Below are positions 3,658 through 23,927 of a stretch of 24,000 nt of DNA, in pieces. Positions within the stretch are counted from its first letter, which is position 1; every line of letters begins with the position of its first letter. The notes under the pieces were generated by a model that worked only from the letters and a program-made list of their open reading frames with translations, had not been told where the DNA came from and did not search any database. Origin of the DNA: Streptomycetaceae bacterium (lineage in GTDB: Bacteria > Actinomycetota > Actinomycetes > Nanopelagicales > Nanopelagicaceae). The stretch spans positions 31,849 through 55,848 of the forward strand of contig QYPG01000013.1 in assembly GCA_007279945.1 (NCBI GenBank), given 5' to 3'. The position numbers and the translations under genes were made by a program.

Positions 3658-5307
3658 CTACTTCTTGGCAGCTAGTCGGGCCTCACGACGAACACGTTGT
3701 TCAGATGGATCTGGCACCGGAACGGCAGCGATCAAGCGGCGTGTGTAGTCATTTTTTGGACGTTGCAAGATTGCGTCGCGATCGCCCTCTTCGACAAGTA
3801 GACCGTCCTGCATTACTGCGATGCGGTGGGCCAAGATATCGACAACAGCTAAGTCATGGCTAATAAATAAACATGCAAACTTCATCTTCTCCTGCAGCTC
3901 CTGCAAAAGATCTAAGAAGCGGGCCTGCACCGAAACATCTAGCGCCGAGGTTGGTTCATCGGCAATTAACAAATCTGGGGTCAAGGCAAGTGCGCGCGCA
4001 ATCCCTACGCGTTGGCGCTGACCACCTGAAAGCTCATGCGGATAACGGTTGCGATAACTGCGTGGAAGCTCTACTTGATCCAATAAATCTTCAATCATGC
4101 GTGCAAGCTCTGGACCCTTAGCAATTTTTGCTAAGAAAAGTGGCTCGCCAATTGACTCTCCGATTGGCAGGCGTGGATTTAATGAGCTAGCTGGATCTTG
4201 AAAAACGATTCCAGTATGGCGACGAATCGAGAAGAGATCTTTTTGTGATGCATGGCTAATATCTTTGCCAACAATCTCAATTGTTCCAGCCTTGATCGGC
4301 AATAAGCCGATTGATGCACGGCCCACGGTCGTCTTTCCAGAGCCTGATTCTCCAACCAGGCCAACGATTTCACCTGGATAGATTTCAAGATTAAAGTTTT
4401 TCACGGCAGTAAATGCTGGAATACGACCACGCTTTGGATATTCGATAGTCACATCGGTAAGTTTTAAAACAGGATCTGGTTTAGCGCTCTCTTTATAAGG
4501 AAGCGCGCGCTTAACACTTGAGCCCAGCTTTGGAACCGCTCCCAACAACTGCTGCGTGTAAGGATGTTGCGGGCGATTAAAAATCTGATCGGCGCTACCG
4601 TGTTCAACCGTGATTCCATCCTTCATTACCAAAATCTCATCGGCCATATCTGCAACAACGCCCATATCATGTGTAATCAAAAGAATGGCCGAATTGAACT
4701 TACCTTTTAGGTCGCGCATTAAATCTAGAATTTCAGCTTGAACAGTCACATCCAGCGCTGTAGTTGGCTCATCGGCGACTAGAAGACCTGGATCACACGC
4801 GAGGGCTTGAGCAATCATTGCGCGTTGGCGCTGTCCACCTGATAACTGGTGCGGATACTTGTTGATTGATTTCTCTGGATCTGGAATATCCACCATCGTA
4901 ATTAACTCAAGTGCGCGGGCATGTGCCTGATGTGGGCCCATATCAAAGTGGTTGCGCAAAGTCTCCGTGATCTGAAAACCAATTGTGTAAACCGGGTTCA
5001 GCGCCGTCATTGGCTCTTGGAAAATATAGGCAACTTCTTTTCCTCGGAAATGGCGAAGTGTTACCGACTTTGCATTGAGCATCTCCTGCTCTTTGACTTT
5101 TACACTTCCGCTCATACGTGCATTAGATGCAAGTAGCGACATCAAACCAAGGGCGGTAGTTGATTTACCCGAACCTGATTCGCCAACGATGGCAGTTACT
5201 TTGCCGGGCTCAAGCGAGAGATTCATATCGATAACAGCTGGATACCACACACCATCGACCCAGAAATCAACGTTAAATCCCGCGATCTCTAAAATTGGCT
5301 TACTCAT
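3658..5307 (-). CDS. ABC transporter ATP-binding protein, fused double ATPase (DppD/DppF-type)
   Basis: 549 aa. Two Walker A motifs ([18 protein letters not shown]), two LSGGQRQR signatures and two Walker B motifs ([16 protein letters not shown]). Strong SD: GGAGG 7 nt upstream of the ATG at 5307. Confidence 0.9.
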
Positions 5308-5360
5308 AGGTGTGCCTCCGCTTGCTTGGTATCAAGGTTTAGATCCAACTGTGACAAACT

Positions 5361-5900
5361 GTGGGCATGAACAATGCCGAAAAGTTCCGTCCCACTAGTG
5401 CGCTGGTTATGGGTTGGGTGTTGATCGCTTTTTTCGCAGGTTTTGTCGCTCAAAGTATTTACTACGGTGGATTGCTCGAAGCCATGATCACGATTCTCAT
5501 CTGTGGAACGCTTGCTTTCGGCACATACCTTAGTTTTATTAAGCCCTACGTTGTTATCTTTGATGAAGGTATCAAGATTGTTAACCCAACCAAAGAGATC
5601 ACTGCCAGTTGGGATCGTGTTGAAGAGATCGAGACCAAGTACAGCATGTCCATCATCGTTGATGGGTGCAATTTCTACGCGTGGGCCGCTCCAGCTCCTA
5701 GTCGTCGTCACGGAAAGAGTATGCATAAGAGTGACTTCACTCCCCGCGGTAGTGCGCACCCGGTTCGAATTGGTGACTCGCCGCGAAGTGATTCGGGTGC
5801 GTGTGCCTACATTGCCCGTCTTCGCCGAAAAGATTTCATCACCAGAGCTTTGCCGGCCGCCAATATCTTCCAGATCAAGAGTGGTCTGTTCGTCAAATAA
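5361..5900 (+). CDS. Small membrane protein with a bacterial PH domain (bPH_6 / low-molecular-weight antigen 6-like)
   Basis: Two N-terminal hydrophobic helices (VMGWVLIAFFAGFVAQSIYY, AMITILICGTLAFGTYLSFI). Then KPYVVIFDEGIKIVNPTKEITASWDRVEEIE...DGCNFYAWAAPAP, which matches the actinobacterial PH-domain family pattern as I remember it. The start could be GTG 5361 or ATG 5367. Confidence is reduced because a codon-aligned 233-aa ORF lies on the other strand and I see no clear SD or promoter. Confidence 0.65.
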   Translation: MGMNNAEKFRPTSALVMGWVLIAFFAGFVAQSIYYGGLLEAMITILICGTLAFGTYLSFIKPYVVIFDEGIKIVNPTKEITASWDRVEEIETKYSMSIIVDGCNFYAWAAPAPSRRHGKSMHKSDFTPRGSAHPVRIGDSPRSDSGACAYIARLRRKDFITRALPAANIFQIKSGLFVK

Positions 5901-5901
5901 A

Positions 5902-6990
5902 TTACTCATCGGCTTGAGCCAATTTTTTGGAGATTGCCGATTCTTGACGTTCCTTTTTTGAGATTCTCCGACGCTGGCGAGGATCGAAGGCATCGCGCAG
6001 ACCATCGCCGATAAAGTTAATACTCAAAGCGATGGTAATGATAAAGAAGCCTGGATACCAGAAAAGCCAAGGACGGGTTGTAAATGAATCTTGGTACTGG
6101 CTAATTAATAGACCTAGAGAAACGTCCGGTGGAACTACACCAAAGCCAAGGTATGACAGCGCAGTCTCCAGTAAAATTGCTCCCGATAGCAGCAGCGTCA
6201 CTGAAACGATAATAATTCCAACTGCGTTTGGCAGAATGTGCTTGAAGATAATACGGCGGTTAGTTGCGCCAGCAACGCGTGCGGCATCGACGAACTCACG
6301 CTCGCGAAGGGTCAAGAACTCTCCACGTACTAAACGTGAAAGACCGGTCCAAGCAAATAAACCTAAGTAAAACGCTAAGAAAATCGCGCCAAGGTTGCCG
6401 TAGTGGTAACCAATAACTGATCCAATAAGAACAGCTGGGACAGTGATCATGAAGTCCACAAGGCGCATCAGGATTGAGTCAATCTTTCCGCGGTAGAAAC
6501 CTGAGATCGAGCCGACGATTGTTCCAATAGTTCCACCAAGGAAACCAATAACGATCATGACAGATAATGAGCGCTGGGCACCTTTCATTACCAAAGCAAA
6601 GAAGTCATGCCCAATATCGTCTTGACCAAATGGGTGCGTACCTAGTCCAATACCTGCTCCACCTAGGAACTGCGGACGCAAAGAAACTGTTGGACAGCCA
6701 ACGGTTCCCCCAGGGCAATCACCTACGCGCAACTCTGGCAGGTCTTCGGTTGTCCATTTCCACCAACCAGGAATTCTCCAGACGCCAAATAATCTAAAGT
6801 CCAGCGCGGAAAATACAAAAATCACAATTGAAATAATCGTCACTAAGGAGAAAACTGCTGCACGGTGACGGAAGAAGCGTCGACGAACGATTTGTCCCTG
6901 GCTTAAACCCTCAACTTCTCGGTTAGAGATCGCATTTTCACCGCTGAGAACTGAGGTTGATTCAGCTGACTTCTTAGATGTGCGGGCCAT
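5902..6990 (-). CDS. ABC transporter permease (DppC/OppC-type)
   Basis: 362 aa, multiple TM helices. EAA-loop block REFVDAARVAGATNRRIIFKHILPN. Its ATG directly abuts the upstream permease stop (TAA-ATG). Confidence 0.9.
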   Translation of the reverse strand: MARTSKKSAESTSVLSGENAISNREVEGLSQGQIVRRRFFRHRAAVFSLVTIISIVIFVFSALDFRLFGVWRIPGWWKWTTEDLPELRVGDCPGGTVGCPTVSLRPQFLGGAGIGLGTHPFGQDDIGHDFFALVMKGAQRSLSVMIVIGFLGGTIGTIVGSISGFYRGKIDSILMRLVDFMITVPAVLIGSVIGYHYGNLGAIFLAFYLGLFAWTGLSRLVRGEFLTLREREFVDAARVAGATNRRIIFKHILPNAVGIIIVSVTLLLSGAILLETALSYLGFGVVPPDVSLGLLISQYQDSFTTRPWLFWYPGFFIITIALSINFIGDGLRDAFDPRQRRRISKKERQESAISKKLAQADE

Positions 6991-10683: not shown

Positions 10684-11289
10684 TCACCCCTCCTGGCGAG
10701 ACTTTTCGATTTTTGCTGTGGTTAATCGAGGCGCTGCCAATCCCCACAAAAAAAGGCCCAGTACGACCGAAATCAGGTAGGGGGCCCGAAGGGCGCTTTC
10801 GCGAGATACCAAGTGGGTCATGGCCGTGACCAATCCGCCTCCTACAAACATTCCGATAGGGATCGAACCCCAGGCAAAGAATCGATAGACGCTATTGACC
10901 CGCCCCAACAGCGCCGGTGGAATGATGCTTTGGCGAAGCGAGACGGTGATTGTGTTCCATAAAATCGCCACAAATGTCTCAAACGCGGTCACAACCCAGA
11001 CAACCTGCCATGAAGAGGTTAGCCCAACAATTAAGTTTCCAATCGGGGCTGCGGCCATTGCCAAAGCTAACGATGGGCCACTTCCTAATCGTGCTGAAAC
11101 TTTAGGTGCAAAGAATCCACCAATAGTCCCACCGATTGCTCCGGCCGTACCCAGTATGGCAAAGATAAAGACCGTCGTATGTAAAACCTCTTGAGCAAAT
11201 AAAATATAAACGGCACCGACCATGGTGCCCAGACCATTCATGCAACCCAAGATAATTGCCATGGGCCGCAATAATGGCAACAAGTACAC
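10684..11289 (-). pseudogene. C-terminal half of an MFS transporter (about 6 TM helices); probable gene remnant
   Basis: 201 aa of continuous TM-helix sequence resembling the second six-helix bundle of an MFS protein. The only start is a GTG, with no SD. An in-frame stop lies 4 codons upstream (11302..11304). The strong pstS terminator ends about 45 nt upstream, so there is no room for an N-terminal half. Confidence 0.55.
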
Positions 11290-11399: not shown

Positions 11400-12554
11400 T
11401 TAACCGATCTTTGCTACTTGAGCTAATGACTTAGCAAGAAGTGCTCCGTCAATAACGCTAAAGCCAAGGGCAGCACCAACATCACCTGAGCACTTAGAGC
11501 TCAAGACATAGGTTGCATATGCTTTAACTGCAGCTGCAGTTGTCTTTGATGGGTAAGCAGTGTCTGCAAGTAGGTAAGAGACGATACCCAGTGTGTAGGC
11601 ACCTGCCTCCTGAGTGTCAAACTTGAATGTTAAGAAGCCGTTTACGTCTTGTGTGGCAGAAGCAAGGAATGCTGCAACACCAGTTGAGTTTGGCGCAACT
11701 GATGAACCAGCTGGGTTAATGACATTTGCAATCTTTAGGTTGTTTGCAGCTGCGTAGTTAACTTCAGCATAAGTAATTGAGTATGGAGTCTTGCCTGCAA
11801 GTTGTGCAACACCAGTAGATGATGCGGCGCCAACAACACGGCCTAGGTTAGCAATAGAGTTGATGTCTCCTGGGAAGCCATCCTTGAAAACTTTACCCTT
11901 AGCCTTAGTCCACACTGTTGGAGCTGACTTATTCATATAGTTTGTGAAGTTCTCAGATGTTCCAGATGAATCAGAGCGGTAGATAACCGTGATTGGCTGG
12001 TTTGGAAGTGTATAGACACTAGTTACTTTTCTAGTTGAAAGAACAATTGGATTACCCTTTGCATCTTTCTTTGGGTTTCCATTGGCATCTAGCTTGTACT
12101 TAACAACAGTCGTTGTACGGTTGTTATCAGTTGCGATGAGTGGATCATTCCAGCGGGTAATTGTTCCGCCGAAGATTCCTGCAATTGTCGCTGCTGATAG
12201 CTGTAGAGTCTTTGTAGATTTCAAGTTAGTTAGAACTGCAATTGGAGCAGCAACTAGTGGCACGTGAATAAGTGTTGAACGCTTTGTCGCTGCAGTGTAG
12301 GCACCGTCTGACATCCAGAAATCACCGATTGACTTATCGGAGTTTGCTTGGCCTGTTCCTGAAGATGATGATGCATAGACATAAGAGTTAGCTCCACCAT
12401 TGCTAGCTGCAAAGCCAGCCTTACAAGCTTCGATTAGAAGAGCTGGGAATGATGCACCAGAACCCTGTAAATCAACGGCGTATGCCGGCGAGCCTGCTAC
12501 TAAACCAAACGCGAGTGCAAGTGATGCAACTTTCGCGAGCTTTGAAATTCTCAA
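11400..12554 (-). CDS. pstS: Phosphate ABC transporter substrate-binding protein PstS
   Basis: The ORF track gives 11400..12599. I prefer the TTG at 12554 because AAGGAG lies 7 nt upstream. The product then starts with a signal peptide, (M)RISKLAKVASLALAFGLVAGSPAYA. GSGASFP and SDSSGTS blocks are typical of PstS. It sits next to pstCAB. Confidence 0.9.
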   Translation of the reverse strand: MRISKLAKVASLALAFGLVAGSPAYAVDLQGSGASFPALLIEACKAGFAASNGGANSYVYASSSSGTGQANSDKSIGDFWMSDGAYTAATKRSTLIHVPLVAAPIAVLTNLKSTKTLQLSAATIAGIFGGTITRWNDPLIATDNNRTTTVVKYKLDANGNPKKDAKGNPIVLSTRKVTSVYTLPNQPITVIYRSDSSGTSENFTNYMNKSAPTVWTKAKGKVFKDGFPGDINSIANLGRVVGAASSTGVAQLAGKTPYSITYAEVNYAAANNLKIANVINPAGSSVAPNSTGVAAFLASATQDVNGFLTFKFDTQEAGAYTLGIVSYLLADTAYPSKTTAAAVKAYATYVLSSKCSGDVGAALGFSVIDGALLAKSLAQVAKIG

Positions 12555-12594
12555 TGTATTTCTCCTTTTTAGGTAAGTTCGAATTACTGGGTAA

Positions 12595-12660
12595 AACATA
12601 TGGAGAGTAAATGAACGAAGAGCGTTCAGAATCCAAACGCTCTTCGACTTCTAAGTGAAC
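12595..12660 (-). promoter_or_regulatory. Candidate Pho-box array plus -10 element for pstS
   Basis: The minus strand reads GTTCACTTAGA|AGTCGAAGAGC|GTTTGGATTCT|GAACGCTCTTC|GTTCATTTACT|CTCCA|TATGTT. GTT-initiated units recur every 22 nt. The last unit + 5 nt + TAnGTT closely parallels the phoU upstream region. Confidence 0.45.
12616..12646 (-). terminator. Hairpin between pstB and pstS (possible attenuator or partial terminator)
   Basis: CGAAGAGCGTT-(9 nt)-AACGCTCTTCG: an 11-bp perfect stem 28 nt after the pstB stop. It is followed on the minus strand by UUCAUUUACUCUCC, which is only moderately U-rich. It overlaps the repeat array. Confidence 0.4.
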
Positions 12661-12673
12661 AATAGGTAAATGA

Positions 12674-13552
12674 CTATCCGAAGCGCCCAGTGACATAGTT
12701 TTCAGTGCGTTGATCCTGTGGGCGCGAGAAGATCTCACTCGTTGGTGCAACTTCGATCATCTGACCTGGGCCACCATCGGATAAGAAGAAGGCGGTGTAG
12801 TCGGAGACGCGCGCCGCTTGCTGCATATTGTGAGTCACGATAATGATTGTCATAGTGTCGGATAAGTGACGAATCGTCACTTCGATACGAAGCGTTGATC
12901 CAGGATCAAGGGCAGAACATGGCTCATCCATTAATAAGACTTGTGGGCGCACAGCTAATGCGCGGGCGATGCATAATCGCTGTTGCTGGCCACCTGAAAG
13001 TGATCCTCCGTGGGCTCCTAAACGATCTTTTACTTCACTCCATAAACCTGCACGCTCCAGGCTTTCTTCGAGCAGGTCGTCTTTGTTATCAACTTTTATT
13101 TGGGCAAGCTTGAGTCCAGATAAAACATTTTCGCCAATCGTCATCGATGGAAATGGGTTTGGCTTCTGAAAGACCATACCTATCTGCAGGCGGATCTTGG
13201 TGACGTCGGTACCTGGCGCATAGACATCCTTGCCGTCCAGCAAAACCTCACCAGCCATGGCAGCAGTTGGAATGAACTCGTGCATGCGATTAATAGTGCG
13301 AATAAACGTCGATTTACCGCAGCCCGATGGTCCAATCAAGGCGGTAACGGTGCCTGCCGCAAAATCTAATGAAATATTAGAGAGAGCATGGTGCTTACCA
13401 AACCAAGCGTGAACTCCACGAGTTTCAAGTCCAGTACCCAGTGCGCGCGTCCCTGGAACTTTAGTTGGCTTAGCTTGTGCAACATCGGCAAGTGAACTTG
13501 GTTTAACACTCGTGTCCATGGTTTCCTTTTCGCTCTCGTGTGAAGTTGTCAT
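12674..13552 (-). CDS. pstB: Phosphate import ATP-binding protein PstB
   Basis: Walker [10 protein letters not shown], signature LSGGQQQR, Walker [13 protein letters not shown]-terminal ..[10 protein letters not shown] typical of PstB. ATGA overlap with the pstA stop supports the start at 13552. An alternative ATG lies 11 codons in. Confidence 0.93.
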
Positions 13553-14598
13553 TTCGCGACCTTTCTAGAACCCAAGTAACGTGCCGATGTAAAGAGAATG
13601 AGCACGAGCCCTACTAACACTAAAAGACCTGCCCATGCGCGCGTAATCGCCTCAGGTGAACCGGCATTAAATGATTTCCAGATGTAATACGGCAACGAGC
13701 CCATTGGTCCGCTAAAAGCGTTGGGATTAACTTTGTCACCTCCACCAGTGAGTAAGAGAATTGGTGCGGTTTCACCGGCTATGCGTGCAACTCCCAAGAT
13801 AATCGCAGTTACTAAACCACTTCTGGCCGCCGGCAAAACAATCATCGCAACTGTTCGCCATTGAGTTCCACCCAAAGCCGTTCCGGCTTCGCGCAATTCA
13901 TTGGGGATCAAGTTAAGAACTTCTTCAGATGTTCGTGCGATCGTTGGAATCATCAAAATTGTCAACGAAAGGGAGCCCATCAAGCCCGAATAAGCCTTCG
14001 TGATTGGGTAGAGGATTGCCGAGAGAATAAATAGCCCAGCAACAATCGATGGAACCCCACTCATGGCTTGCACTAAGAAACGAATGGGGCCCGTGAAGCG
14101 TCCTTTTATTTCGGTGAGGTATAACGCAGTTAAAATTCCAATCGGAACACTGAGGAAGAGCGCTATTGCAACCATCGTCAACGTGCCGGTGATTGCATGT
14201 AGCAATCCACCATTGTTAAGTGGATCTGTTGGAGTAGCTAGGGCCATATCGTGGGTAAAAAGGTTAAAACTGATGCCTGGTAAGCCTTTTCTAAGCACAG
14301 TATCCAAGATGCTGGCTACTGGGATAACCGTAACGATCGCACCAATCGCAACTAATGAGTTTACGAACGCATCTTTTGCCGCCGCACTGCCACGTTGAGT
14401 TGCTTTGAAAACAGATGTAAGGAGTGCGTATGCAATGAAGAAGATCGTAAAGTAAGCCAGTTTTCCTTTCATGGAGGTCAGTGCAACCACCAAAAAGGAA
14501 GTTGTTATCGCCGCTAGAAAAATCCCAGTATCCAGAGCACGTTCGCGCTTTGATGCCTGCCATGGCTTAGTCGGTACTGCTGTAATCGTGGTACTCAT
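13549..14598 (-). CDS. pstA: Phosphate ABC transporter permease PstA
   Basis: 349 aa polytopic membrane protein. PstA-type blocks [26 protein letters not shown] and [16 protein letters not shown] overlap with pstC. Confidence 0.9.
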
Positions 14599-15578
14599 CG
14601 TCCCGACTTTCCAGTAGTTCTCACTATTAAATTTGCAAGAGCATTAACAATCAATGTCATCGCAAATAAAACAAGTCCTGCTGCCATCAAAGCCTTAATC
14701 TCATAAGGGCTCGCATCACCAAACTTCAAAATAATTAGTGACGCGACGTTTCCACCCGCACCTAGTAGCATCTGCCAGTTGATTTGAAAGACGATATTTA
14801 AAACGGTAAATACTGCAACGGTTTCACCCATCGCACGTCCAAGGCCCAGCATTGCTCCACCAATTACACCACTTCGACCATGCGGTATTACTACCGCTTT
14901 AATCATGGCCCACCGTGTTGCACCTAGCGCATAAGCTGCTTGAATACGATCAAGTGGTGCTTGTGAAAAAATCTCGCGAGAAACTGATGTAATAATTGGA
15001 ATAATCATAATTGCCAACACAACTCCAGCCACAAATGGAGAGCGGGTATAAAACGGAACCTGCATTTTAAAAAATGGCATAAAACCTAAATATTTATGCA
15101 GCAGTTTTGCCCAATATTCAACGCTGGGCATAAGTACCAAAAATCCCCAGATTCCAAAGAGGATCGATGGGAATGCAGCCATCATGTCAATAATGGTGAC
15201 CATAATTTTCTTGAGCCATCCTGGCGCGTAAAAGTTAAGAAAAAGCGCGCAAAATACCGATATTGGAAGTGCGATCGCTACAGCGATAAGGGAGCAGAGA
15301 ATGGTTCCAACTAGCATTGCAGCTAAGCCAAAGTGGCTCTCCAGCACATTGCCTGCATCATCAGTTGAGATTGACCAATCTGCGTGGGTGATAAAACCGA
15401 TTCCCTCTTGACGCAATACCTCAAAACCGCGGTAGCCCAGAAAAAGAGCGATTAGACCTAGAAGTAATAGCGATGAAAGTCCACCAGTAGTGACTACACC
15501 ACGAAAGACTTTGTCCGAAAATCGAGGCTCTGTAGTGATCTCTCTCGGTTTTGGAATTAGCAACTCTTGAACTGACAT
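14595..15578 (-). CDS. pstC: Phosphate ABC transporter permease PstC
   Basis: 327 aa polytopic membrane protein. PstC-type blocks FGLAAMLVGT, AAYALGATRWAMI and GRAMGETVAV. Its ATG lies 1 nt after the phoU stop. Confidence 0.9.
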   Translation of the reverse strand: MSVQELLIPKPREITTEPRFSDKVFRGVVTTGGLSSLLLLGLIALFLGYRGFEVLRQEGIGFITHADWSISTDDAGNVLESHFGLAAMLVGTILCSLIAVAIALPISVFCALFLNFYAPGWLKKIMVTIIDMMAAFPSILFGIWGFLVLMPSVEYWAKLLHKYLGFMPFFKMQVPFYTRSPFVAGVVLAIMIIPIITSVSREIFSQAPLDRIQAAYALGATRWAMIKAVVIPHGRSGVIGGAMLGLGRAMGETVAVFTVLNIVFQINWQMLLGAGGNVASLIILKFGDASPYEIKALMAAGLVLFAMTLIVNALANLIVRTTGKSGR

Positions 15579-15579
15579 T

Positions 15580-16233
15580 TTATGAAGCGAACTTTCCCGT
15601 GACTAAAAAGTAAACCCGGCGCGAGATTGACACTGCATGATCTGCATAGCGTTCGTAGTAACGTCCCAAAAGAGTTAAGTCGATTGCGGTTTCAATACCG
15701 TGCTTCCAGGTTGGTTCAATGAGAATACTGATGAGTTCGCGATGCAACCCATCCATTTCATCATCATCGCGCTCGACTTCAAGTGCCATTTCGGTATTGC
15801 GCGTAGAAATTACTAATCCTGTTTTATCAGTAATCTTTATCGCTGCCTTACCCACAGCTGTAATTATTTCAACTAGCTCGGTTGGCACAGCGGAATCTGG
15901 ATGACGCATGCGAGCAATCTTTGCGACATGGTGTGATAGATCTCCCATGCGCTCAAGATCTGATCCCATTCGTAGGGCAGTGACTAAAGCTCGCAAATCC
16001 GATGCAACGGGTTGCTGCCTTGCAATAATGTCAATAATTCGTGAATCGATATCGTGCTGAAAATCATCGATTTTTTCATCTGCAACGATAACTTCTTCCG
16101 CAAGTTTTAAATCACAGGTTAGAATTGCCGTCGTTGCTTTTGACATGGCTTCTGAAACCATAAAAGCCAAATCAACTAAGGATTGAGATATGCCGTCGAG
16201 CTCATCTTGGAATACGGATCTAATAAGGGCCAT
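15580..16233 (-). CDS. phoU: Phosphate signalling complex protein PhoU
   Basis: Two PhoU repeats containing DxxxD-type motifs (the DLERMGD and ERYADH regions). The ORF track starts at 16272. I prefer the ATG at 16233 (MALIRSVFQDELDGISQSL...) because a TAGGTT hexamer lies 7 nt upstream. The 13 additional residues also do not resemble a PhoU N-terminus. Confidence 0.88.
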   Translation of the reverse strand: MALIRSVFQDELDGISQSLVDLAFMVSEAMSKATTAILTCDLKLAEEVIVADEKIDDFQHDIDSRIIDIIARQQPVASDLRALVTALRMGSDLERMGDLSHHVAKIARMRHPDSAVPTELVEIITAVGKAAIKITDKTGLVISTRNTEMALEVERDDDEMDGLHRELISILIEPTWKHGIETAIDLTLLGRYYERYADHAVSISRRVYFLVTGKFAS

Positions 16234-16240
16234 GGCGCAA

Positions 16241-16284
16241 AACCTATGTGGAGATGATGAATAGAGACCCACGCTTAGATGAAC
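16241..16284 (-). promoter_or_regulatory. Candidate Pho-box repeats plus -10 element for phoU, in the divergent phoU/senX3 control region
   Basis: The minus strand reads GTTCATCTAAG|CGTGGGTCTCT|ATTCATCATCT|CCACA|TAGGTT|TTGCGCC|ATG. (G/A)TTCATC repeats lie 22 nt apart. The proximal unit overlaps the -35 position. Confidence 0.45.
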
Positions 16285-16311
16285 GGAAGGTAAACTGGCG
16301 TTTCAAGCCTA

Positions 16312-16317
16312 TAGAGT
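16312..16317 (+). promoter_or_regulatory. Candidate -10 hexamer TAGAGT for a leaderless senX3-regX3 transcript
   Basis: TAGAGT-TCGGAT-ATG with no SD. The TAG of the hexamer is also the in-frame stop that closes the reading frame upstream of the kinase start. Confidence 0.35.
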
Positions 16318-16323
16318 TCGGAT

Positions 16324-17388
16324 ATGAAGTTCTTGCGCAGGGACTTAGAGGAGCCAAATCCTAGGGACCTGCCCGAGATGCTCCTTGAAACGCTGAGCCA
16401 ATTAGACGGGGATTCAATGATTGTCGCCCCTGGCGAAGTCCCACTGTTTATTACCCCTGGTATCGAGGCTCTAGGCATTTTCAAAGATGGCAAAATTCAA
16501 AGCTCCGAGCTTCTTGCAACCGTTCGAGTAGTTCGTCGCACCAATAATCAACAAGTTGGAAAAATTGAAATCCCTCGCGGCCCAATTGGTGAAGGCAAAC
16601 ATGAGCTCACAGTAAAAGTCTTACCTTTAACAAAAGATGATTTGGTACTGGTACTTGTTAGTGATGAAAGTGAAGCACAACGAGTGCACGATATACGACG
16701 AGATTTTGTTGCAAATATATCGCATGAGTTGAAGACTCCTATCGGCGCACTTTCACTATTGAGTGAGGCAGTCCTAGGATCAAAAGATGATCCTGAATCC
16801 GTCGTTAAGTTTGCAACCCGTATGCAGGCTGAAGCTAAGCGACTTACTGATTTAGTGCAAGAGATTATTCATCTCTCTAGAGTTCAAGACTCTGATCCAC
16901 TTCAACTTGCGCAAGAAGTCGGCGTGGAATATTTGATTCGTGAAGCTATTGATCAATGTCAGATTGCTGCTGATAATCGAAAAATTACTGTCACGTATGC
17001 CGAATCAACATCAGCAATTGTTCTAGGTGACCGTGATCAGTTAATCATGGCACTTCATAATCTGGTAGAAAATGCCATCAACTACTCCCCTGAAAATACA
17101 AAAGTTTCTATCTCAACCTCGGCAGAAAATAATGTAATTAGCATTGCAATAACCGATCAGGGAATTGGAATTTCTGATTCAGAACAAGATCGAATCTTTG
17201 AACGTTTTTACCGTGTTGACCCAGCGCGCTCTCGTCAAACTGGTGGAACTGGACTTGGTCTTTCTATCGTTAAGCATGTTGCCGCTAAACATGGTGGTGA
17301 AGTGAAAATCTGGAGCGTTGAAAACGTCGGGAGTACTTTTTCTCTTCGATTACCCATCTATCTACCACCTACGGAGAGCACAGTATGA
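16324..17388 (+). CDS. senX3: Sensor histidine kinase, SenX3/PhoR-like, with no transmembrane segment
   Basis: H-box RRDFVANISHELKTPIGAL, N-box LVENAINYSP, G-boxes DQGIGI and GGTGLGLSIVKH. The N-terminal ~120 aa is soluble and PAS-like. An in-frame stop at 16312 excludes any longer N-terminus. Confidence 0.85.
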   Translation: MKFLRRDLEEPNPRDLPEMLLETLSQLDGDSMIVAPGEVPLFITPGIEALGIFKDGKIQSSELLATVRVVRRTNNQQVGKIEIPRGPIGEGKHELTVKVLPLTKDDLVLVLVSDESEAQRVHDIRRDFVANISHELKTPIGALSLLSEAVLGSKDDPESVVKFATRMQAEAKRLTDLVQEIIHLSRVQDSDPLQLAQEVGVEYLIREAIDQCQIAADNRKITVTYAESTSAIVLGDRDQLIMALHNLVENAINYSPENTKVSISTSAENNVISIAITDQGIGISDSEQDRIFERFYRVDPARSRQTGGTGLGLSIVKHVAAKHGGEVKIWSVENVGSTFSLRLPIYLPPTESTV

Positions 17389-18071
17389 CCAAAATATTAA
17401 TCGTTGAAGATGAAAGCTCTTTTTCAGAAGCCCTAGCATTTCTTTTAGGTAAAGAGGGTTTCCAAGTAAGTGTGGCCGAAGATGGACGCGCAGCCCTCAG
17501 TATGTTTAGTAAAGAGGGTGCAGACCTAATCCTGCTAGATCTTATGATCCCTGAAATCTCTGGCGTCGATGTATGTCGAACAATCAGAACAACATCTCAA
17601 GTTCCAATCATTATGTTAACGGCCAAAGATGCCGAAATCGACAAGGTCGTTGGCCTAGAACTTGGCGCAGATGACTACGTTACCAAGCCGTATTCCTCAC
17701 GCGAATTAATTGCTCGTATTAAGGCCGTACTTCGTCGGGGAATATCTGATGCTGATTTAAATGGTGACCTTGAAGTTATCTCTGTTGGACCTATCCGACT
17801 AGATACTGCACGTCACCAAGCATCAATTAATGGAAATCCAATTGCGCTTCCATTAAAAGAGTTTGAGCTTCTTGAATTCCTAATGCGCAACTCTGGTCGT
17901 GTATTGGCCCGTTCACAGTTAATCGATCGCGTCTGGGGTGGCGATTATTTTGGTGATACTAAAACACTGGACGTTCATATCAAACGCTTGCGCGCAAAGA
18001 TTGAAGTTGATCCAGCTAATCCAGTATTAATTCAGACTATTCGCGGCTTAGGTTACAAACTAGAGAGTTAA
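17385..18071 (+). CDS. regX3: OmpR/PhoB-family response regulator (RegX3/PhoP-like)
   Basis: Receiver domain (ILIVEDE, DLILLDLMIPEISG, LTAKD). Winged-helix output domain (LTLKEFELLEFLMRN...VHIKRLRAKIE...IQTIRGLGYKL). ATGA overlap with the kinase gene. Confidence 0.9.
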   Translation: MTKILIVEDESSFSEALAFLLGKEGFQVSVAEDGRAALSMFSKEGADLILLDLMIPEISGVDVCRTIRTTSQVPIIMLTAKDAEIDKVVGLELGADDYVTKPYSSRELIARIKAVLRRGISDADLNGDLEVISVGPIRLDTARHQASINGNPIALPLKEFELLEFLMRNSGRVLARSQLIDRVWGGDYFGDTKTLDVHIKRLRAKIEVDPANPVLIQTIRGLGYKLES

Positions 18072-18139
18072 CACTGAGAGTTGGCACTCACTACCTAGTT
18101 ATGAGAGCCAATCGAGACACTTGATCTGGACATTGAAAT

Positions 18140-18145
18140 TAAGAT
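18140..18145 (+). promoter_or_regulatory. Candidate -10 hexamer TAAGAT for a leaderless glycyl-radical-enzyme transcript
   Basis: TAAGAT-TTATGC-ATG with no SD. I found no convincing terminator in 18072..18139, so read-through from regX3 is also possible. Confidence 0.3.
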
Positions 18146-18151
18146 TTATGC

Positions 18152-19687
18152 ATGACTTCCTTACAAGATATCCGTGCGGTAGTAACCGATCCAAAGTTTA
18201 CTTACCGTCAGCGCGTCTCGGCACTTGCACAATTAGCTGAAAATCTTCTAGATCCACCGGCCGTGCGCAAGCAGTGCAGTGATGCTCTCACAAATCGAAT
18301 TATCTGCGATATGTATGAGGGCCATGCTCCATATCGCCCACGTTACTTATTGCCCGATTACAAGAAAGTACTCGTTAACGGTTCCTCCTTTCTGGAAATC
18401 CCCGCGGCTAAAGATCTAGATGATGCCTTAGCTTTTCTATTAATTATGTACTCATCTACTCCATCGATAACAGGTTATCCGGTTTATTTCGGTGATCTAG
18501 ATTCACTGCTACTTCCTTATATCGAAGGCGTTACCGATGAGGATCTGTATTCCAAGCTCAAGCGCTTCTGGATAAGCCTGGATCGAATGTTTCCTGATGC
18601 CTTTGCTCACACCAATTTAAGTCCAGTCTATAACCGTGTCTCAAAGATGATTTTTAAATTGGAGCGCGAATTGTTGCAAGTTGTTCCAAATATCTCACTG
18701 AAAGTAGACCCAGTATTAACGAGTGATGAATATATTTTGGATGCAGTGAAGACTGTCTTTGAATGCGGCAAGCCACACTTCATCAATGACGTCATGATGA
18801 AATCAGATCTTGGCGAAAACTATGCCGCAGTCAGTTGCTATAACTCACTTAAAATTGGTGGTGGCGCACATACCTTGGTTCGAATAAACCTTAAGGCAAC
18901 GGTTGAGGCTGGTTGTGGTGGAGTCGAGAGTTTCTTTGAAGCTACGCTTCCTTATTACTTAGATTTAACCGCTGAATTGATGGAGTCACGAATTATCTAT
19001 TTGGTTGAAGAGTCACACTTCTTTGAATCAAACTGGTTGGTTGCCGAAGGACTTCTTGACCTCGATAAATTCTCTGCGATGTTTGGCATCTTTGGTTTAG
19101 CTGAAGCAGTAGATATTTTGATGCAGCAAGAGGGTGTCGAGGGCACGTACGGCCATAGTATTGCCGCCGACGACCTTGGCTATCGCATTACATCTTTCAT
19201 CGCCGATTGGGTATCAAAGCGCAAAATGCCTTACTGTGATGGCAATGATGGCTATGCGTTTCTGCATTCACAATCAGGTATTGATCTAGATATTGGCGTC
19301 ACCGCTGGAACTCGAATCCCCATTGGTACGGAGCCTCCACTAATTGCCCATCTAAAAACTGTCGCTCGTCACCATCACTTATTCCAATCAGGTATCAGTG
19401 ATGTTCTATCCTTCGATGAAACCGCTGTTAAGAATCCACAAGCAGTCGTTGACGTAATCCGAGGCGCCTTCAAGAGTGGAATGCGCGATTTCACCTTCAA
19501 TTTAGATAGCAATGACTTCATTCGAATCACTGGCTATTTAGTACGCAAATCCGATTTAGCAAAGATGCCAGCTGCACGACACGGCAGTACCTTCCTTGGC
19601 GCAGGCTCAGTCGCCGACTCACATGTTGATCAGCGAAATGTGAAGCGGGTGACCAGTGCCGAAAGCTCCCCAAGCTCAAGTAGCTAG
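18152..19687 (+). CDS. YjjI-family glycyl-radical enzyme (short GRE, substrate unknown)
   Basis: 511 aa. C-terminal glycyl-radical fingerprint FIRITGYLV (Gly461, codon 19532..19534). Cys-loop AVSCYNSLKIGGG (Cys229, codon 18836..18838). Blocks CDMYEGHAPYRPRYLLPDY, PHFIND, HHHLFQSGISDVLSFDET and AFKSGMRDFTFN match E. coli YjjI as I remember it. A cognate activase gene follows immediately. Confidence 0.8.
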   Translation: MTSLQDIRAVVTDPKFTYRQRVSALAQLAENLLDPPAVRKQCSDALTNRIICDMYEGHAPYRPRYLLPDYKKVLVNGSSFLEIPAAKDLDDALAFLLIMYSSTPSITGYPVYFGDLDSLLLPYIEGVTDEDLYSKLKRFWISLDRMFPDAFAHTNLSPVYNRVSKMIFKLERELLQVVPNISLKVDPVLTSDEYILDAVKTVFECGKPHFINDVMMKSDLGENYAAVSCYNSLKIGGGAHTLVRINLKATVEAGCGGVESFFEATLPYYLDLTAELMESRIIYLVEESHFFESNWLVAEGLLDLDKFSAMFGIFGLAEAVDILMQQEGVEGTYGHSIAADDLGYRITSFIADWVSKRKMPYCDGNDGYAFLHSQSGIDLDIGVTAGTRIPIGTEPPLIAHLKTVARHHHLFQSGISDVLSFDETAVKNPQAVVDVIRGAFKSGMRDFTFNLDSNDFIRITGYLVRKSDLAKMPAARHGSTFLGAGSVADSHVDQRNVKRVTSAESSPSSSS

Positions 19688-20354
19688 CATCATTCCTTTT
19701 TCTTGGGTCGATGGCCCAGGAAATCGCTTCGTTCTCTTTTTACAGGGATGTAACTTCAACTGTCTGGTGTGCCATAACCCTCACACAATTCCGCTTCATA
19801 CTCCGCGGGCAAATGAGATGAGCGTGCAAGAAGTTCTTATTGAGATTAGAAGTGCGATGCCATATATATCTGGCATCACTGTCTCGGGTGGTGAAGCAAC
19901 ACTGCAACATGAATTTGTTCTAGAACTCTTTAAAGAGATTAAGAAACGCTCTGAGTTTGAACATTTAACGACCATGATTGATAGCAATGGAAATGCACCG
20001 CAAGAAGTATGGGATCTTATGGCCCCATATACCGACGGTGTAATGCTGGACCTTAAAGCCCTAGATGATGCCAGTCATATCGAGCTCACCGGAAGTTCCA
20101 ATACAGTAGTTTTGGAGTCAATTAAATATTTGGATTCGATTAATAAACTATATGAAGTCCGCCTGCTCTTGGTTCCAGGCCACAACGACTCAGATGAAGT
20201 GCTAATCACGACTGCCTTATGGCTCAAAAAAGTTAACCCTAATATGAAAATTAAGATTAACGCCTTTAAAACACATGGTGTGCGAGCTAGTGCTCGCGAA
20301 TGGCCTGAAGTAAGTGATAGAGATTTAGTTCGCTATCACGCCATCATTGATTAA
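19656..20354 (+). CDS. Glycyl-radical enzyme activating protein (radical SAM, YjjW/PflA-like)
   Basis: 232 aa with a GTG start overlapping the GRE gene by 32 nt. N-terminal SWVDGPGNRFVLFLQGCNFNCLVCHNP carries the CxxxCxxC cluster (19749..19772). SAM-binding block GITVSGGEAT. These three Cys are the only cysteines in the protein. Confidence 0.85.
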   Translation: MPKAPQAQVASIIPFSWVDGPGNRFVLFLQGCNFNCLVCHNPHTIPLHTPRANEMSVQEVLIEIRSAMPYISGITVSGGEATLQHEFVLELFKEIKKRSEFEHLTTMIDSNGNAPQEVWDLMAPYTDGVMLDLKALDDASHIELTGSSNTVVLESIKYLDSINKLYEVRLLLVPGHNDSDEVLITTALWLKKVNPNMKIKINAFKTHGVRASAREWPEVSDRDLVRYHAIID

Positions 20355-21691
20355 ATCGAAGCGAAAGCCTCGTCTAAAACGCTCATAGCATCAAGTAATA
20401 ATTCATCAGAAATTACTAATGGAGGCAAAAAGCGGACTACGTTGGAATACGTTCCAGCAGTAAGTACGAGGACGCCCTTGCTTTGGCAGTACTTAACCAC
20501 GGCATTCATGGCAGCTGTATTTGGATTCTTAGTTCCAGCTTCTACTAATTCAATAGCCTGCATTGCGCCTCGGCCGCGAACTTCACCAATAACTGGATAC
20601 TTCTTGGCGAGCGCACGTAGTGAATCACCCAGAATTGTGCCGATATGTTGGGCGCGGGCAACCAAGTTTTCAGCCTCGATGGTTTCAAAAACGCCAAGAG
20701 CTGCCGCACATGCAAGTGGATTTCCTCCGAAGGTTCCCCCTAGGCCTGATGCATGAACTGAGTCCATCACATCGGCTCGGCCAGTAATGCCTGCAAGTGG
20801 CAATCCGCCTGCAATTGCCTTAGCCGTGACAACCATATCTGGCACAACATTTTCTTCTTCCATAGCAAACATGTGGCCAGTACGAGCAAAGCCAGTCTGT
20901 ACTTCATCGGCGATAAAGAGGATTCCATTATCTGATGAGTATTTTGACAGTGCGGGCAGGAAACCCTTGGGCGGGACGATGAAGCCACCCTCGCCTTGAA
21001 TTGGCTCGATTAAAATCGCGGCAACGTTATGCGCACCAATCTCTTTTTCAATTTTATGCGTCACCATCTCAATTGCATCTTCAGTAATCGTCGCCTGATT
21101 GCCAACCCAGTGGAATGAGTACGGCATAGGCACTCGATATACCTCGGGGGCAAACGGACCAAAGCCCTCTTTGTACGGCATGTTCTTGGCAGTCAGGGCC
21201 ATGGTTAAATTAGTGCGGCCGTGATAACTGTGTTCGAAAACAACAATCGCTGGACGCTTCGTGAAGTGACGCGCAATCTTGACTGCATTCTCAACAGCTT
21301 CGGCACCTGAGTTAACTAGCAACGACTTCTTCTTATGGGTTCCCGGAGTGAGTTCATTTAATTTTTCGCATACTTCGATGTAATTCATATACGGTGCAAC
21401 TGTGAAGCATGTGTGAGTAAATGCCTGCACTTGCTCAATGACTCGATCTACAACGCGGCTGGCGGAGTTACCAACGCTGACCACACCGATACCTGAACCC
21501 ATATCGATAATCTGATTACCATCGATGTCCAGCAAGATCGCATCACTGGCACGTTCAATAATTACTGGAATCGCAATTCCCAATCCCCCTGATGTCGCCT
21601 CACTGCGACGCTTGAGCGCCTCTAATGATTTTGGTCCTGGAATAGCAGTGACCAGACGGCGTTCTTGGGTCAGATTAGTCAGTGTGTTCAT
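20351..21691 (-). CDS. gabT: Class-III PLP aminotransferase, 4-aminobutyrate/omega-amine aminotransferase-like
   Basis: 446 aa. Blocks SGAEAVENAVKIAR and FIADEVQTGFARTGHMFA. PLP-lysine block VTAKAIAGGLP. GGTFGGNP. The symbol is tentative because the amine substrate cannot be read from sequence. Confidence 0.8.
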   Translation of the reverse strand: MNTLTNLTQERRLVTAIPGPKSLEALKRRSEATSGGLGIAIPVIIERASDAILLDIDGNQIIDMGSGIGVVSVGNSASRVVDRVIEQVQAFTHTCFTVAPYMNYIEVCEKLNELTPGTHKKKSLLVNSGAEAVENAVKIARHFTKRPAIVVFEHSYHGRTNLTMALTAKNMPYKEGFGPFAPEVYRVPMPYSFHWVGNQATITEDAIEMVTHKIEKEIGAHNVAAILIEPIQGEGGFIVPPKGFLPALSKYSSDNGILFIADEVQTGFARTGHMFAMEEENVVPDMVVTAKAIAGGLPLAGITGRADVMDSVHASGLGGTFGGNPLACAAALGVFETIEAENLVARAQHIGTILGDSLRALAKKYPVIGEVRGRGAMQAIELVEAGTKNPNTAAMNAVVKYCQSKGVLVLTAGTYSNVVRFLPPLVISDELLLDAMSVLDEAFASI

Positions 21692-21747
21692 GGTTAAAGT
21701 CTAAGCCCATATTTCCCAAGCAAAGCCCTAAAAGTTAGGCTAAGACC
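21692..21747. promoter_or_regulatory. Divergent control region with two leaderless-type -10 hexamers
   Basis: Minus strand: TAGACT (21703..21698)-TTAACC-ATG for the aminotransferase. Plus strand: TAGGCT (21736..21741)-AAGACC-ATG for the decarboxylase. Neither start has an SD. Confidence 0.4.
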
Positions 21748-23181
21748 ATGAGTTCACTGAGAGTTTCGGCACCGTTATTAGATGCCTACCTTTCTTACTT
21801 TGAGAGCAAGCGAACTCCTTTCACGATCCCTGGGCATAAGCAACGGGCATCACGCTTAGATGCTGGGCTTGGACAGGTTGTAGATAGCGACACCCCTCTC
21901 TACGGCGGCTTAGATGAAATTAAATTAACGCACCAGGTTTTACGAAAAGCTGAAAGCTTGGCGGCCACATTATGGAACGCTGACTACGCCAGGTTTTCAA
22001 CTGGTGGATCTACACATGCCAACCAAGCGATCATCTTGGCTCTTGGTAAACCTGGCGACAAAGTTGCACTCTCACGAACTGCCCATCGCTCAGTCTTAAG
22101 TGCATTGGTGCTTGCTGGCCTTGAACCAATCTGGCTATCACCCGATATTGATGCGGCAACTGGAGTCCCAATTGGAATCTCTGTGCAAGAGTTTGAAAAA
22201 ATTTTACATCAAAATCCAATTGCGCTGTTGCTCACCGAGCCCGGTTACCTTGGAACGCTCTCGGATTTATCTGCACTCATCACATCTGCGCATTCACTTT
22301 CAATTCCCGTCATCGTCGATGCTGCCTGGGGTGGACACTTTGGTTTTTCTCAATCAGTGCCCGCGCACTGTCTTGCCTTAGGAGCCGATGCATTAATTAC
22401 AAGTACGCATAAAGCGCTTCCTGGATACAGCGCTTCGGCAATCTTGCTAGCACAAGGAAAATATTTAAATCTAGATCGCATCGAGCAAAGTTTTGAGACT
22501 ACTCACACAACGTCTCCGGCGGGTGCCCCGCTTGCCTCAATCGATGGCTGTCGTGCGCTTTTACAAACTCGCGGAGAAGAGTTAATTCAAGAATTAGTCA
22601 CTAATGTCGAGAAATTTAAGAGCGATGTCCAATCTAATTTTGAAATCCCAATCTTCTTAAACACATCGGATTTTCCATTAGGCCGTTTTGATCCAACAAA
22701 GATTGTTCTACGCGCCAATCAATTGGGTGCATCTGGCGTGGAAATTGAAAAAACTTTACAGCTCAGTAATATCCGCGTAGAGATGGCCGATAGCGACACG
22801 GTAGTCTTCTTAGCAACCTTGGCCGATTCCACCCCCGAGTTTGATGAGCTTGCCGATACATTAACTCCTATTCTCAAAGCTCTTGCCACATCGCCTCGAG
22901 CTAGCGCGACATCACTAAGTTGGTCCGTATTGCCCCAAGTGGGAGTTTCAATGCGCCAGGCTTACTTTGCCGATACTGAAATGGTTGTGGCCGCCGATGC
23001 AACCGGCCGCATTTCAGCCGACTTAATTGCCCCATATCCACCAGGGGTCGCTGTTGTAGCACCGGGAGAAGTATTGACCTCAACTATTATCGAAGGCTTA
23101 GCTACAACAAAGGCGGCCGGAATACGCATTGCCTATGCCACCGATCCCACACTATCTACATATCGAGTAGTTAAAAGTTAA
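21748..23181 (+). CDS. Fold-I PLP-dependent Orn/Lys/Arg decarboxylase family protein
   Basis: 477 aa. N-terminal FTIPGHKQ and GGSTHANQA. PLP-lysine block ITSTHKALPG. C-terminal IAPYPPGVAVVAPGE typical of the OKR_DC_1-type decarboxylases (SpeA/YaaO-like). The substrate is not assignable by eye. Confidence 0.8.
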   Translation: MSSLRVSAPLLDAYLSYFESKRTPFTIPGHKQRASRLDAGLGQVVDSDTPLYGGLDEIKLTHQVLRKAESLAATLWNADYARFSTGGSTHANQAIILALGKPGDKVALSRTAHRSVLSALVLAGLEPIWLSPDIDAATGVPIGISVQEFEKILHQNPIALLLTEPGYLGTLSDLSALITSAHSLSIPVIVDAAWGGHFGFSQSVPAHCLALGADALITSTHKALPGYSASAILLAQGKYLNLDRIEQSFETTHTTSPAGAPLASIDGCRALLQTRGEELIQELVTNVEKFKSDVQSNFEIPIFLNTSDFPLGRFDPTKIVLRANQLGASGVEIEKTLQLSNIRVEMADSDTVVFLATLADSTPEFDELADTLTPILKALATSPRASATSLSWSVLPQVGVSMRQAYFADTEMVVAADATGRISADLIAPYPPGVAVVAPGEVLTSTIIEGLATTKAAGIRIAYATDPTLSTYRVVKS

Positions 23182-23183
23182 AG

Positions 23184-23927
23184 ATGTTCGAGTTTCATAA
23201 CCTCGCAATTGCACTATTTCTTTTTCTTGGAGCGATTCTTTATACCTCTGTCGGGCACGCCGGAGCATCTGCCTATATTGCAGTAATGACTCTCTTTGAT
23301 CTACCCGCCGTAGTGATAAAGCCAACGGCGCTCACGCTCAATATTTTCGTCTCTTTCTTTGCTAGCTGGCGCTACATAAAGCGAGGGCTCTTTAATAAGA
23401 GACTCTTGATCTACCTGAGTATCGGCGCGATACCTGCAGCGTTTATTGGAGGCCGCATTGACTTGGCCGACACAATCTATAAACCCATTATTGGTGTGTT
23501 GTTACTTTTTTCAGGCCTGCGCTTTGTTGTGCAATCTCAGCAAGCAGATAAAACTAAGCGAGAAGTAATTCCTGTCTTGGCGATCTTTATCGGCGTTTGT
23601 GTTGGCTTATTATCTGGAGTCACAGGTACCGGAGGCGGCATTTTCTTGTCCCCCCTCATTATTTGGCTGGGGTGGACAACCGTGAAATCGGCAAGTGGAA
23701 CAGTGGCCGCCTTTATCTTTCTCAATTCGCTCTCGGGCTTGTTGGGCAACTTCGCTTCTACTTCTTCACTTCCCCCAACGTTGCCGTTATTTTTAGTGGC
23801 AGTTGTACTCGGCGCCGCTATCGGGACACAATATGGAACTACTCGTTTTTCACATAGTGGAATCAAACGGGCTCTAGGTTGTGTACTAATCATCGCAGGA
23901 ATAAAGTTTTTGTTAGTACTAGCATAG
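23184..23927 (+). CDS. TauE/SafE (DUF81) family anion-export permease
   Basis: 247 aa with about 7-8 TM helices. It shows the internal duplication typical of the family. Glycine-rich GVTGTGGGIFLSPL block. Starts 2 nt after the decarboxylase stop, so it is probably co-transcribed. Confidence 0.85.
   Translation: MFEFHNLAIALFLFLGAILYTSVGHAGASAYIAVMTLFDLPAVVIKPTALTLNIFVSFFASWRYIKRGLFNKRLLIYLSIGAIPAAFIGGRIDLADTIYKPIIGVLLLFSGLRFVVQSQQADKTKREVIPVLAIFIGVCVGLLSGVTGTGGGIFLSPLIIWLGWTTVKSASGTVAAFIFLNSLSGLLGNFASTSSLPPTLPLFLVAVVLGAAIGTQYGTTRFSHSGIKRALGCVLIIAGIKFLLVLA

Follow-up and report, generated by a model that had tools for sequence, protein, structure and literature searches.

The 24,000-nt stretch of contig QYPG01000013.1 discussed here (hereafter the window) belongs to a metagenome-assembled genome (MAG) of Candidatus Planktophila (order Nanopelagicales, acI lineage) and encodes, on its plus strand, a glycyl-radical enzyme (GRE) of the YjjI family together with its radical S-adenosylmethionine (SAM) activase, YjjW. 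The pair adds one member to an orphan family already known, and its short activase is found lineage-wide. Taken together, the evidence makes it probable that yjjI and yjjW form an autonomous, vertically inherited module with canonical GRE chemistry and a promoter of its own, most likely induced at low oxygen. The two genes had first been picked out in a reading made from the letters of the window alone (the original prediction), whose description of the proteins has largely stood and whose proposed link to the neighbouring phosphate-starvation genes has not.

The glycyl-radical enzyme

The 511-AA open reading frame (ORF) identified as yjjI lies at 18152..19687 on the plus strand. It scores 672.9 bits with TIGR04040 (cutoff 498.3), covering positions 2-497 of the 497 in that profile, and 637 bits with PF11230, the former DUF3029 (cutoff 23); its full-length identity to E. 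coli YjjI (b4380) is 46% over 505 residues. Since the activase also passes its own model, TIGR04041, the comparison with family models that the original prediction had proposed places both proteins where it had put them. The two motifs from which the enzyme had been recognised are present as described: RITGY at residues 458-462, with Gly461 (codon 19532..19534, plus strand) as the predicted glycyl-radical site, and SCYNS at residues 228-232, with Cys229 (codon 18836..18838, plus strand) as the predicted thiyl-radical cysteine. E. coli YjjI shares SCYNS and has RVTGY as the counterpart of RITGY; the window Gly461 aligns with its Gly465, the residue labelled in live cells by a radical-trapping probe (August 2026 preprint).

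Aligned across the family, 22 diverse YjjI sequences with 32-61% identity to the window protein share 29 invariant columns, among them S228, C229, N231, R458 and G461 along with several Arg, His and acidic residues, and the window protein keeps all 29. The family is small and homogeneous: a set of 1.84 billion clusters at 50% identity contains 481 representatives of it at E <= 1e-3, the full-length ones being 35-57% identical to the window query. It is still termed uncharacterised in the August 2026 preprint, and a literature search turned up no publication that gives YjjI a substrate or connects Planktophila with glycyl-radical enzymes; the earlier statement that YjjI and YjjW have no assigned substrate is thus still current.

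Predicted fold and relationship to NrdD

In an AlphaFold 2 (AF2) model of YjjI (pLDDT 79, pTM 0.82), Gly461 and Cys229 each sit at the tip of a beta-hairpin, formed by strands 456-459 and 462-465 in the first case and by strands 224-227 and 230-234 in the second. Foldseek returned 123 PDB matches to this model at E <= 0.001, and the 50 best of the 123 are all GREs (NrdD, PflD, HypD, propanediol/glycerol dehydratases, CutC, BSS and others), so the predicted fold is the ten-stranded alpha/beta barrel of the GRE superfamily. The best matches are to the class III ribonucleotide reductase (RNR) NrdD (TM 0.61-0.69, E 1e-17 to 1e-12), followed by other GREs. A sequence search of the PDB with YjjI gave nothing significant (best E about 2, to scorpion toxins), and no solved structure of the family is therefore detectable by sequence. 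The enzyme had been called "half-size"; it is indeed smaller than PFL, but at 511 AA it has about two-thirds of the PFL length and approximately the size of the barrel of NrdD, its best structural match, so that "half" overstates the difference.

This likeness raises the alternative that YjjI is a stripped-down anaerobic RNR, or a nucleotide or ribose-phosphate enzyme with NrdD-like chemistry, feeding deoxyribonucleotides or a related product in hypoxia, which we regard as improbable. The class III RNRs that are its best structural matches (PDB 8p2s, 1h78, 9d3x and 4coj) resemble YjjI in barrel size and in having Cys and Gly finger loops, and a remote relationship is also detectable by profile-profile alignment with E. 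coli NrdD (probability 78%, E 1.8e-5) and in the precomputed NRDD Pfam match on some YjjI homologues; identity to the NrdD structures is, however, only 12-14%, and neither the NRDD nor the ATP-cone models match the window YjjI at E <= 0.01. The last cysteine of YjjI is C362, so there is no C-terminal Cys4 zinc site, and since the ATP-cone and the zinc-site cysteines of NrdD are both missing the protein is not classed as an RNR. There is also a gap opposite E. coli NrdD Cys175 in the hhalign alignment, which ends at residue 358, is probably out of register near the Cys loop and was not used for catalytic equivalences. The activase belongs to a YjjW/PflA-like family and not to that of NrdG. The divergent arrangement of yjjI and deoCABD in E. 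coli would suit such a role, as would the hypoxia boxes of the high-GC relatives described below, but E. coli retains nrdDG besides yjjIW, and no nucleotide-metabolism gene is a conserved neighbour of yjjI across 76 related loci.

A short-form activase

The activase gene, yjjW, lies at 19656..20354 (plus strand) and encodes 232 AA from a GTG start. Of the family models, TIGR04041 gives the highest score, 256.5 bits, marginally above its cutoff of 250.2; the PflA model (TIGR02493) comes second at 148 bits against a cutoff of 231.75. As had been reported from the sequence, the only cysteines of this radical-SAM protein are those of the cluster motif CX3CX2C (C32, C36 and C39; 19749..19772, plus strand); it also has the N-terminal DGPG motif (of the DGPGxR type) from residue 19 and the GGE SAM motif at residue 78. 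The protein lacks the part that corresponds to the middle of the TIGR04041 profile, from the CX3CX2C motif to about profile position 87, which splits the match in two. BLASTP alignment with E. coli YjjW (b4379) gives 39% identity with a single 43-residue gap, which takes out exactly both of the CX2CX2CX3C motifs (8 Cys) of the ferredoxin-like insert and leaves a junction at Ile45/Pro46 (19788..19793, plus strand); E. coli YjjW has 16 cysteines against three here. The insert with its two motifs, present in E. coli YjjW and in the family profile, was not found in the window activase, and the earlier remark on its absence was correct.

Between the upstream stop (19650) and the cluster motif the frame offers no start other than GTG 19656, so that no other start retains the cluster. 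The gene calls of public assemblies begin instead at ATG 19818 (178 AA; such calls range from 161 to 178 AA, including those of related loci L002-L007); they lose the CX3CX2C motif because the true GTG start sits inside yjjI, and the 232-AA call is the better one since the ATG 19818 call drops the Fe-S motif.

Activases could be read at 76 related loci. The short form, typically 231-246 AA with 3-6 cysteines and no ferredoxin motif, was found at 64 of them; all 64 come from Actinomycetes and are paired with a YjjI at least 62% identical to the query, and the junction HNP(Q/H)TIP is common to all short-form relatives. The other 12 loci (Acidimicrobiia, Verrucomicrobiales, Trueperaceae and a few unclassified Actinomycetota or Actinomycetes MAGs) have a long form of about 285 AA with 11-13 cysteines, and the E. 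coli protein is likewise long. The three-cysteine activase is thus a class-wide variant of the Actinomycetes and not peculiar to the window genome; the phrase "minimal activase" holds for its three cysteines and fails as the mark of something special to this locus. Seven other short forms gave 212-254 bits on TIGR04041, five of them below the cutoff, as against 328-396 bits for long forms, which puts short-form YjjW at risk of a generic annotation.

Activases of the PflA and NrdG types, too, have a single cluster. Those of the PflA type resemble the window protein in length (232 AA here, 235 positions in the PFLA profile) and in having one CX3CX2C cluster and no ferredoxin-like domain. The window activase nevertheless scores about 100 bits lower on the PflA model than on the YjjW model, well under the PflA cutoff, and for this reason the short form is, on sequence grounds, best regarded as a YjjW from which the insert has been lost and not as a PflA orthologue.

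Gene overlap and conserved neighbours

The two ORFs overlap out of frame by 32 nt (19656..19687, plus strand), as originally given. Almost all of the 76 related loci preserve such an overlap, at 29 or 32 nt, and it measures 29 nt in E. coli, where a dedicated activase likewise lies directly downstream of yjjI and the pair is likewise without a known substrate; this constancy suggests translational coupling of yjjW to yjjI. When all flanking ORFs of 80 loci were clustered (with a filter on third-position GC, GC3, for ORFs in high-GC loci), the activase was the sole gene conserved with yjjI. Conserved neighbours accordingly gave no function: the other flanking genes are unrelated housekeeping ones, such as those for phosphoglucomutase, a DEAD helicase, a BMP-type ABC transporter, MscL, CysK/CysE, TldD/PmbA and a P450.

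Predicted promoter and upstream palindrome

Between the stop of the preceding gene, regX3, and the yjjI ATG lie 80 nt, the two genes being on the same strand. The sequence TAAGAT (18140..18145, plus strand), a predicted -10 hexamer, ends 6 nt before the ATG. When 24 regX3-yjjI spacers were aligned, the T, A, A and T of TAnnAT were invariant within otherwise diverged sequence and no Shine-Dalgarno sequence was found before the ATG. Across genomic contexts, TANNNT stands at -12/-13 of yjjI in 49 of the 76 related loci, and the predicted -10 fits the TANNNT type of leaderless promoter described in the mycobacterial literature. A TANNNT hexamer exactly 6 nt before the start, again with no Shine-Dalgarno sequence, is also seen in the window at senX3 (16312-16317), gabT (21698-21703, minus strand) and the decarboxylase gene (21736-21741, plus strand), the background rate of this geometry being 0.0088 per position. 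The last two genes diverge from a 56-nt spacer, and phoU has TANNNT at -13; judging from these sites, leaderless first genes appear to be common in this genome. The invariant hexamer, the lack of a Shine-Dalgarno sequence and the geometry shared with senX3, gabT and the decarboxylase gene together argue for a leaderless promoter belonging to yjjI itself.

Further upstream, at 18076..18089 (no strand assigned), the conserved block of the regX3-adjacent spacers contains an imperfect palindrome of 5-N4-5 pattern, GAGAGTTGGCACTC, which is a candidate operator of yjjI. It is kept as GAGnGCCAGCACTC in the regX3-adjacent clade. The same block occurs 44-63 nt upstream of yjjI at four loci (L040, L041, L070 and L042) where regX3 is not adjacent, and the palindrome therefore belongs to yjjI. 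The 5-N4-5 pattern is expected by chance 0.16 times per window. We considered and rejected an RNA structure, whether hairpin or terminator, at the regX3 stop: RNAalifold on 18 spacers gave no consensus pairs, and the palindrome is accordingly better read as a DNA site.

A perfect palindrome of the same 5-N4-5 pattern, GAGTGACTTCACTC, occurs at 5729-5742, inside an ORF at 5304-6005 that has no Pfam match and overlaps an adjacent oligopeptide-permease ORF. Two low-GC relatives have a tRNA-Lys(TTT) gene immediately before yjjI (L056, 2-75; L071, 6536-6609); after it come a variant of the box, GAGGG(T/C)TACTCCC, and then the usual -10 hexamer.

Relationship to the phosphate-starvation genes

Upstream of yjjI are phoU-pstCAB-pstS on the minus strand and senX3-regX3 on the plus strand; regX3, a regX3/phoP-type response-regulator gene outside the unit discussed here (17385..18071, plus strand; Response_reg and Trans_reg_C domains), overlaps senX3 by 4 nt. 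From this position the original prediction had proposed that the two genes extend the senX3-regX3 operon or are controlled by RegX3, being expressed with or under the Pho system and serving phosphorus or other nutrient scavenging at low oxygen. We now consider this very unlikely. The same-strand adjacency, with a spacer of 78-91 nt, is found in 23 species-level genomes; in the window the spacer is, as had been observed, without a recognisable terminator (a consensus scan of the 80 nt found no terminator-like site); and the invariant Arg and His residues of YjjI would suit a phosphorylated substrate. The adjacency, whose survey in related genomes had been suggested, is present in every relative with a YjjI at least 83% identical and a captured upstream flank (GC 0.43-0.47, otherwise syntenic), but at every relative with a YjjI no more than 81% identical it is absent (more than 50 other loci, other Nanopelagicales included), and in those other Nanopelagicales the pair occurs in at least four other contexts. 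It thus holds only in a narrow Planktophila clade, and the position behind senX3-regX3 is probably clade-specific synteny and not a functional link.

The promoter elements agree with this, since yjjI has a conserved -10 box and leaderless geometry of its own and the box beside the regX3 stop also accompanies yjjI where regX3 does not. As a control, the PHO-box direct repeat GATGAACGGAAGGTAAAC was located in the phoU-senX3 spacer (16278..16295, plus strand), where it is conserved in 21 of 21 related spacers, and it recurs at 12654-12671, upstream of pstS; the corresponding pattern, GGTGAAC-N4-GGTAAAC, was not found in the yjjI spacer (18072-18151) even at <=3 mismatches. The homologues in E. 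coli and in high-GC actinomycetes, moreover, point to oxygen-responsive regulators and not to phosphate. A Pho connection would have been the most surprising part of the prediction, and it does not hold up.

Oxygen as a probable regulatory signal

Upstream of yjjI in high-GC Actinomycetes, a box of the form GGGnCnnnnGnCCC is found within 130 nt in 25 of 40 relatives, compared with 13% of control segments. Most of these boxes lie at -49/-50 and read GGGACCTTCGGCCC, which is identical to predicted OsdR sites, for example that upstream of S. coelicolor narG2 (PMC5069765), and matches the DevR half-site GGGACT (PMC3177182). At these loci (L043-L079) the distance to the leaderless yjjI start is fixed at about 49 nt, and a second box is sometimes seen 29-36 nt further upstream. 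The DevR/OsdR-type box predicts that yjjI belongs to the hypoxia/dormancy regulon in these high-GC relatives, which to that extent resemble the DevR/DosR-OsdR regulon of Actinomycetes; the window and other low-GC Nanopelagicales differ from it in carrying the 5-N4-5 palindrome GAGnG-N4-CACTC instead. E. coli yjjI is directly activated by FNR (PMC3688515), whereas the window promoter is predicted to be leaderless with a candidate operator, and Yersinia yjjI is induced 4.3-fold anaerobically (PMC3792023). Given the DevR/OsdR-type boxes, the FNR activation in E. coli and the anaerobic induction in Yersinia, oxygen limitation is likely a recurring regulatory signal for yjjI in the relatives.

Inheritance and selection

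The host had been described as a streamlined free-living actinobacterium, which agrees with its placement in the streamlined freshwater Ca. Planktophila. Recent horizontal transfer of the pair is unlikely because its GC content (0.43-0.46) agrees with that of its surroundings and YjjI similarity across relatives tracks taxonomy. One locus (L008) is 100% identical to the window over the YjjI match, and the copies of YjjI that are 99% identical come from stratified-lake metagenomes. Against nine clade members, dN/dS is 0.03-0.16 for both genes, with synonymous divergence saturated; yjjI and yjjW are under strong purifying selection in the clade. An interpretation of the pair as a relic decaying in the genome of an aerobic plankton organism, its activase disabled by loss of the auxiliary clusters, is hardly credible: the host lineage respires oxygen and has not been found in anoxic samples, and the activase only just exceeds its family cutoff, but the selection already contradicts this idea, all 29 invariant YjjI residues and the CX3CX2C, DGPG and GGE motifs of the activase are retained, the overlap and promoter are conserved, and the short form is common to 64 of the 76 related loci.

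Proposed mechanism

In the autonomous module that we favour, YjjW with a single [4Fe-4S] cluster on C32, C36 and C39 would cleave SAM, and the 5'-deoxyadenosyl radical would abstract a hydrogen from Gly461 of YjjI; the radical stored there would pass to Cys229 on the opposing finger loop, and the Cys229 thiyl radical would attack the substrate within the NrdD-like barrel. As substrate we would expect a central metabolite that is small and probably anionic. Transcription would proceed from the unit's own -10 box and give a leaderless mRNA, with the operator-like palindrome upstream of the promoter and yjjW translated by coupling through the conserved 29-32-nt overlap, and the unit would most likely be switched on when oxygen is scarce, by analogy with FNR in E. 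coli and the DevR/OsdR-type boxes in high-GC Actinomycetes.

Several points weigh against this reading. The Gly loop of the AF2 model has moderate confidence only (pLDDT about 62-64). The substrate class is a guess, suggested by the invariant residues R64, R244, R388, R458, H153 and H372 and by the lack of a conserved partner gene. Read-through from regX3 into yjjI may occur, since the spacer has no recognisable terminator. The window lacks the DevR/OsdR box GGGAC-N4-GNCCC, and among the low-GC loci a single one has it (1/36 at >=7/8); oxygen control of the window yjjI is inferred by analogy only. Cultivated Nanopelagicales were, furthermore, not detected in anoxic samples, and in the same recent genome survey of these organisms radical or anaerobic enzymes go unmentioned (PMC12817590). 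The window host, as a streamlined aerobic freshwater actinobacterium, differs in this from E. coli; its lineage respires oxygen, and cytochrome bd or a nitrate-reductase island is found in some of its members.

Genomic setting

The order of the phosphate-transport genes (11400-16272, minus strand) is unusual: phoU-pstC-pstA-pstB is followed by a 74-nt spacer, which bears the PHO-box-like repeat at 12654-12671 noted above, and pstS comes last. The genes phoU and senX3 diverge, and the spacer of about 90 nt between them bears the conserved PHO box. An ORF at 10684-11289 (201 AA) has only a sub-threshold partial match to MFS_1 (30 bits, cutoff 33.4) and may be a truncated transporter gene.

Downstream of the pair (20351-23927) are genes for a gamma-aminobutyrate (GABA)-type aminotransferase, an Orn/Lys/Arg-type decarboxylase and a TauE-like exporter, after which longer contigs (L002, 15781-21536) add an aldehyde dehydrogenase, a zinc alcohol dehydrogenase and an ABC transporter. 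These genes look like a polyamine or amino-acid catabolic cluster, and neither the window nor the longer contigs gave evidence of a link between it and the radical enzyme. In six other members of the clade (L011, L013-L015, L030 and L053) an extra gene of about 261 AA, absent from the window, lies on the minus strand between yjjW and gabT; judged by eye from its sequence, it may encode a short-chain dehydrogenase.

Significance

To our knowledge, YjjI is the last E. coli glycyl-radical enzyme that has no assigned substrate. Substrate-bound structures of PflD and YbiW are now in the PDB. With its three cysteines, the short activase ought to be more tractable than E. coli YjjW, and the conserved overlap of 29-32 nt suggests that the activase is made in a controlled manner and at a low level. 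Oxygen-linked regulation of the pair is predicted in two phyla, through FNR in E. coli and through DevR/OsdR-type boxes in high-GC Actinomycetes.

A bolder reading, which we think rather unlikely but worth stating, is that Nanopelagicales have a low-oxygen response, so far unrecognised, of which the palindrome GAGnG-N4-CACTC and the leaderless yjjI promoter are the marks and an orphan GRE run by a naturally minimised single-cluster YjjW is the output. If so, supposedly strict aerobes would use radical anaerobic chemistry in hypoxic niches, and the short form of the Actinomycetes would be a natural experiment in which auxiliary Fe-S clusters proved dispensable within one orthologous activase family. 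Independently of that response, the strong purifying selection under which the pair is kept in Ca. Planktophila, despite genome streamlining, implies that the most abundant bacteria of lakes need an oxygen-sensitive enzyme at some stage of their life.

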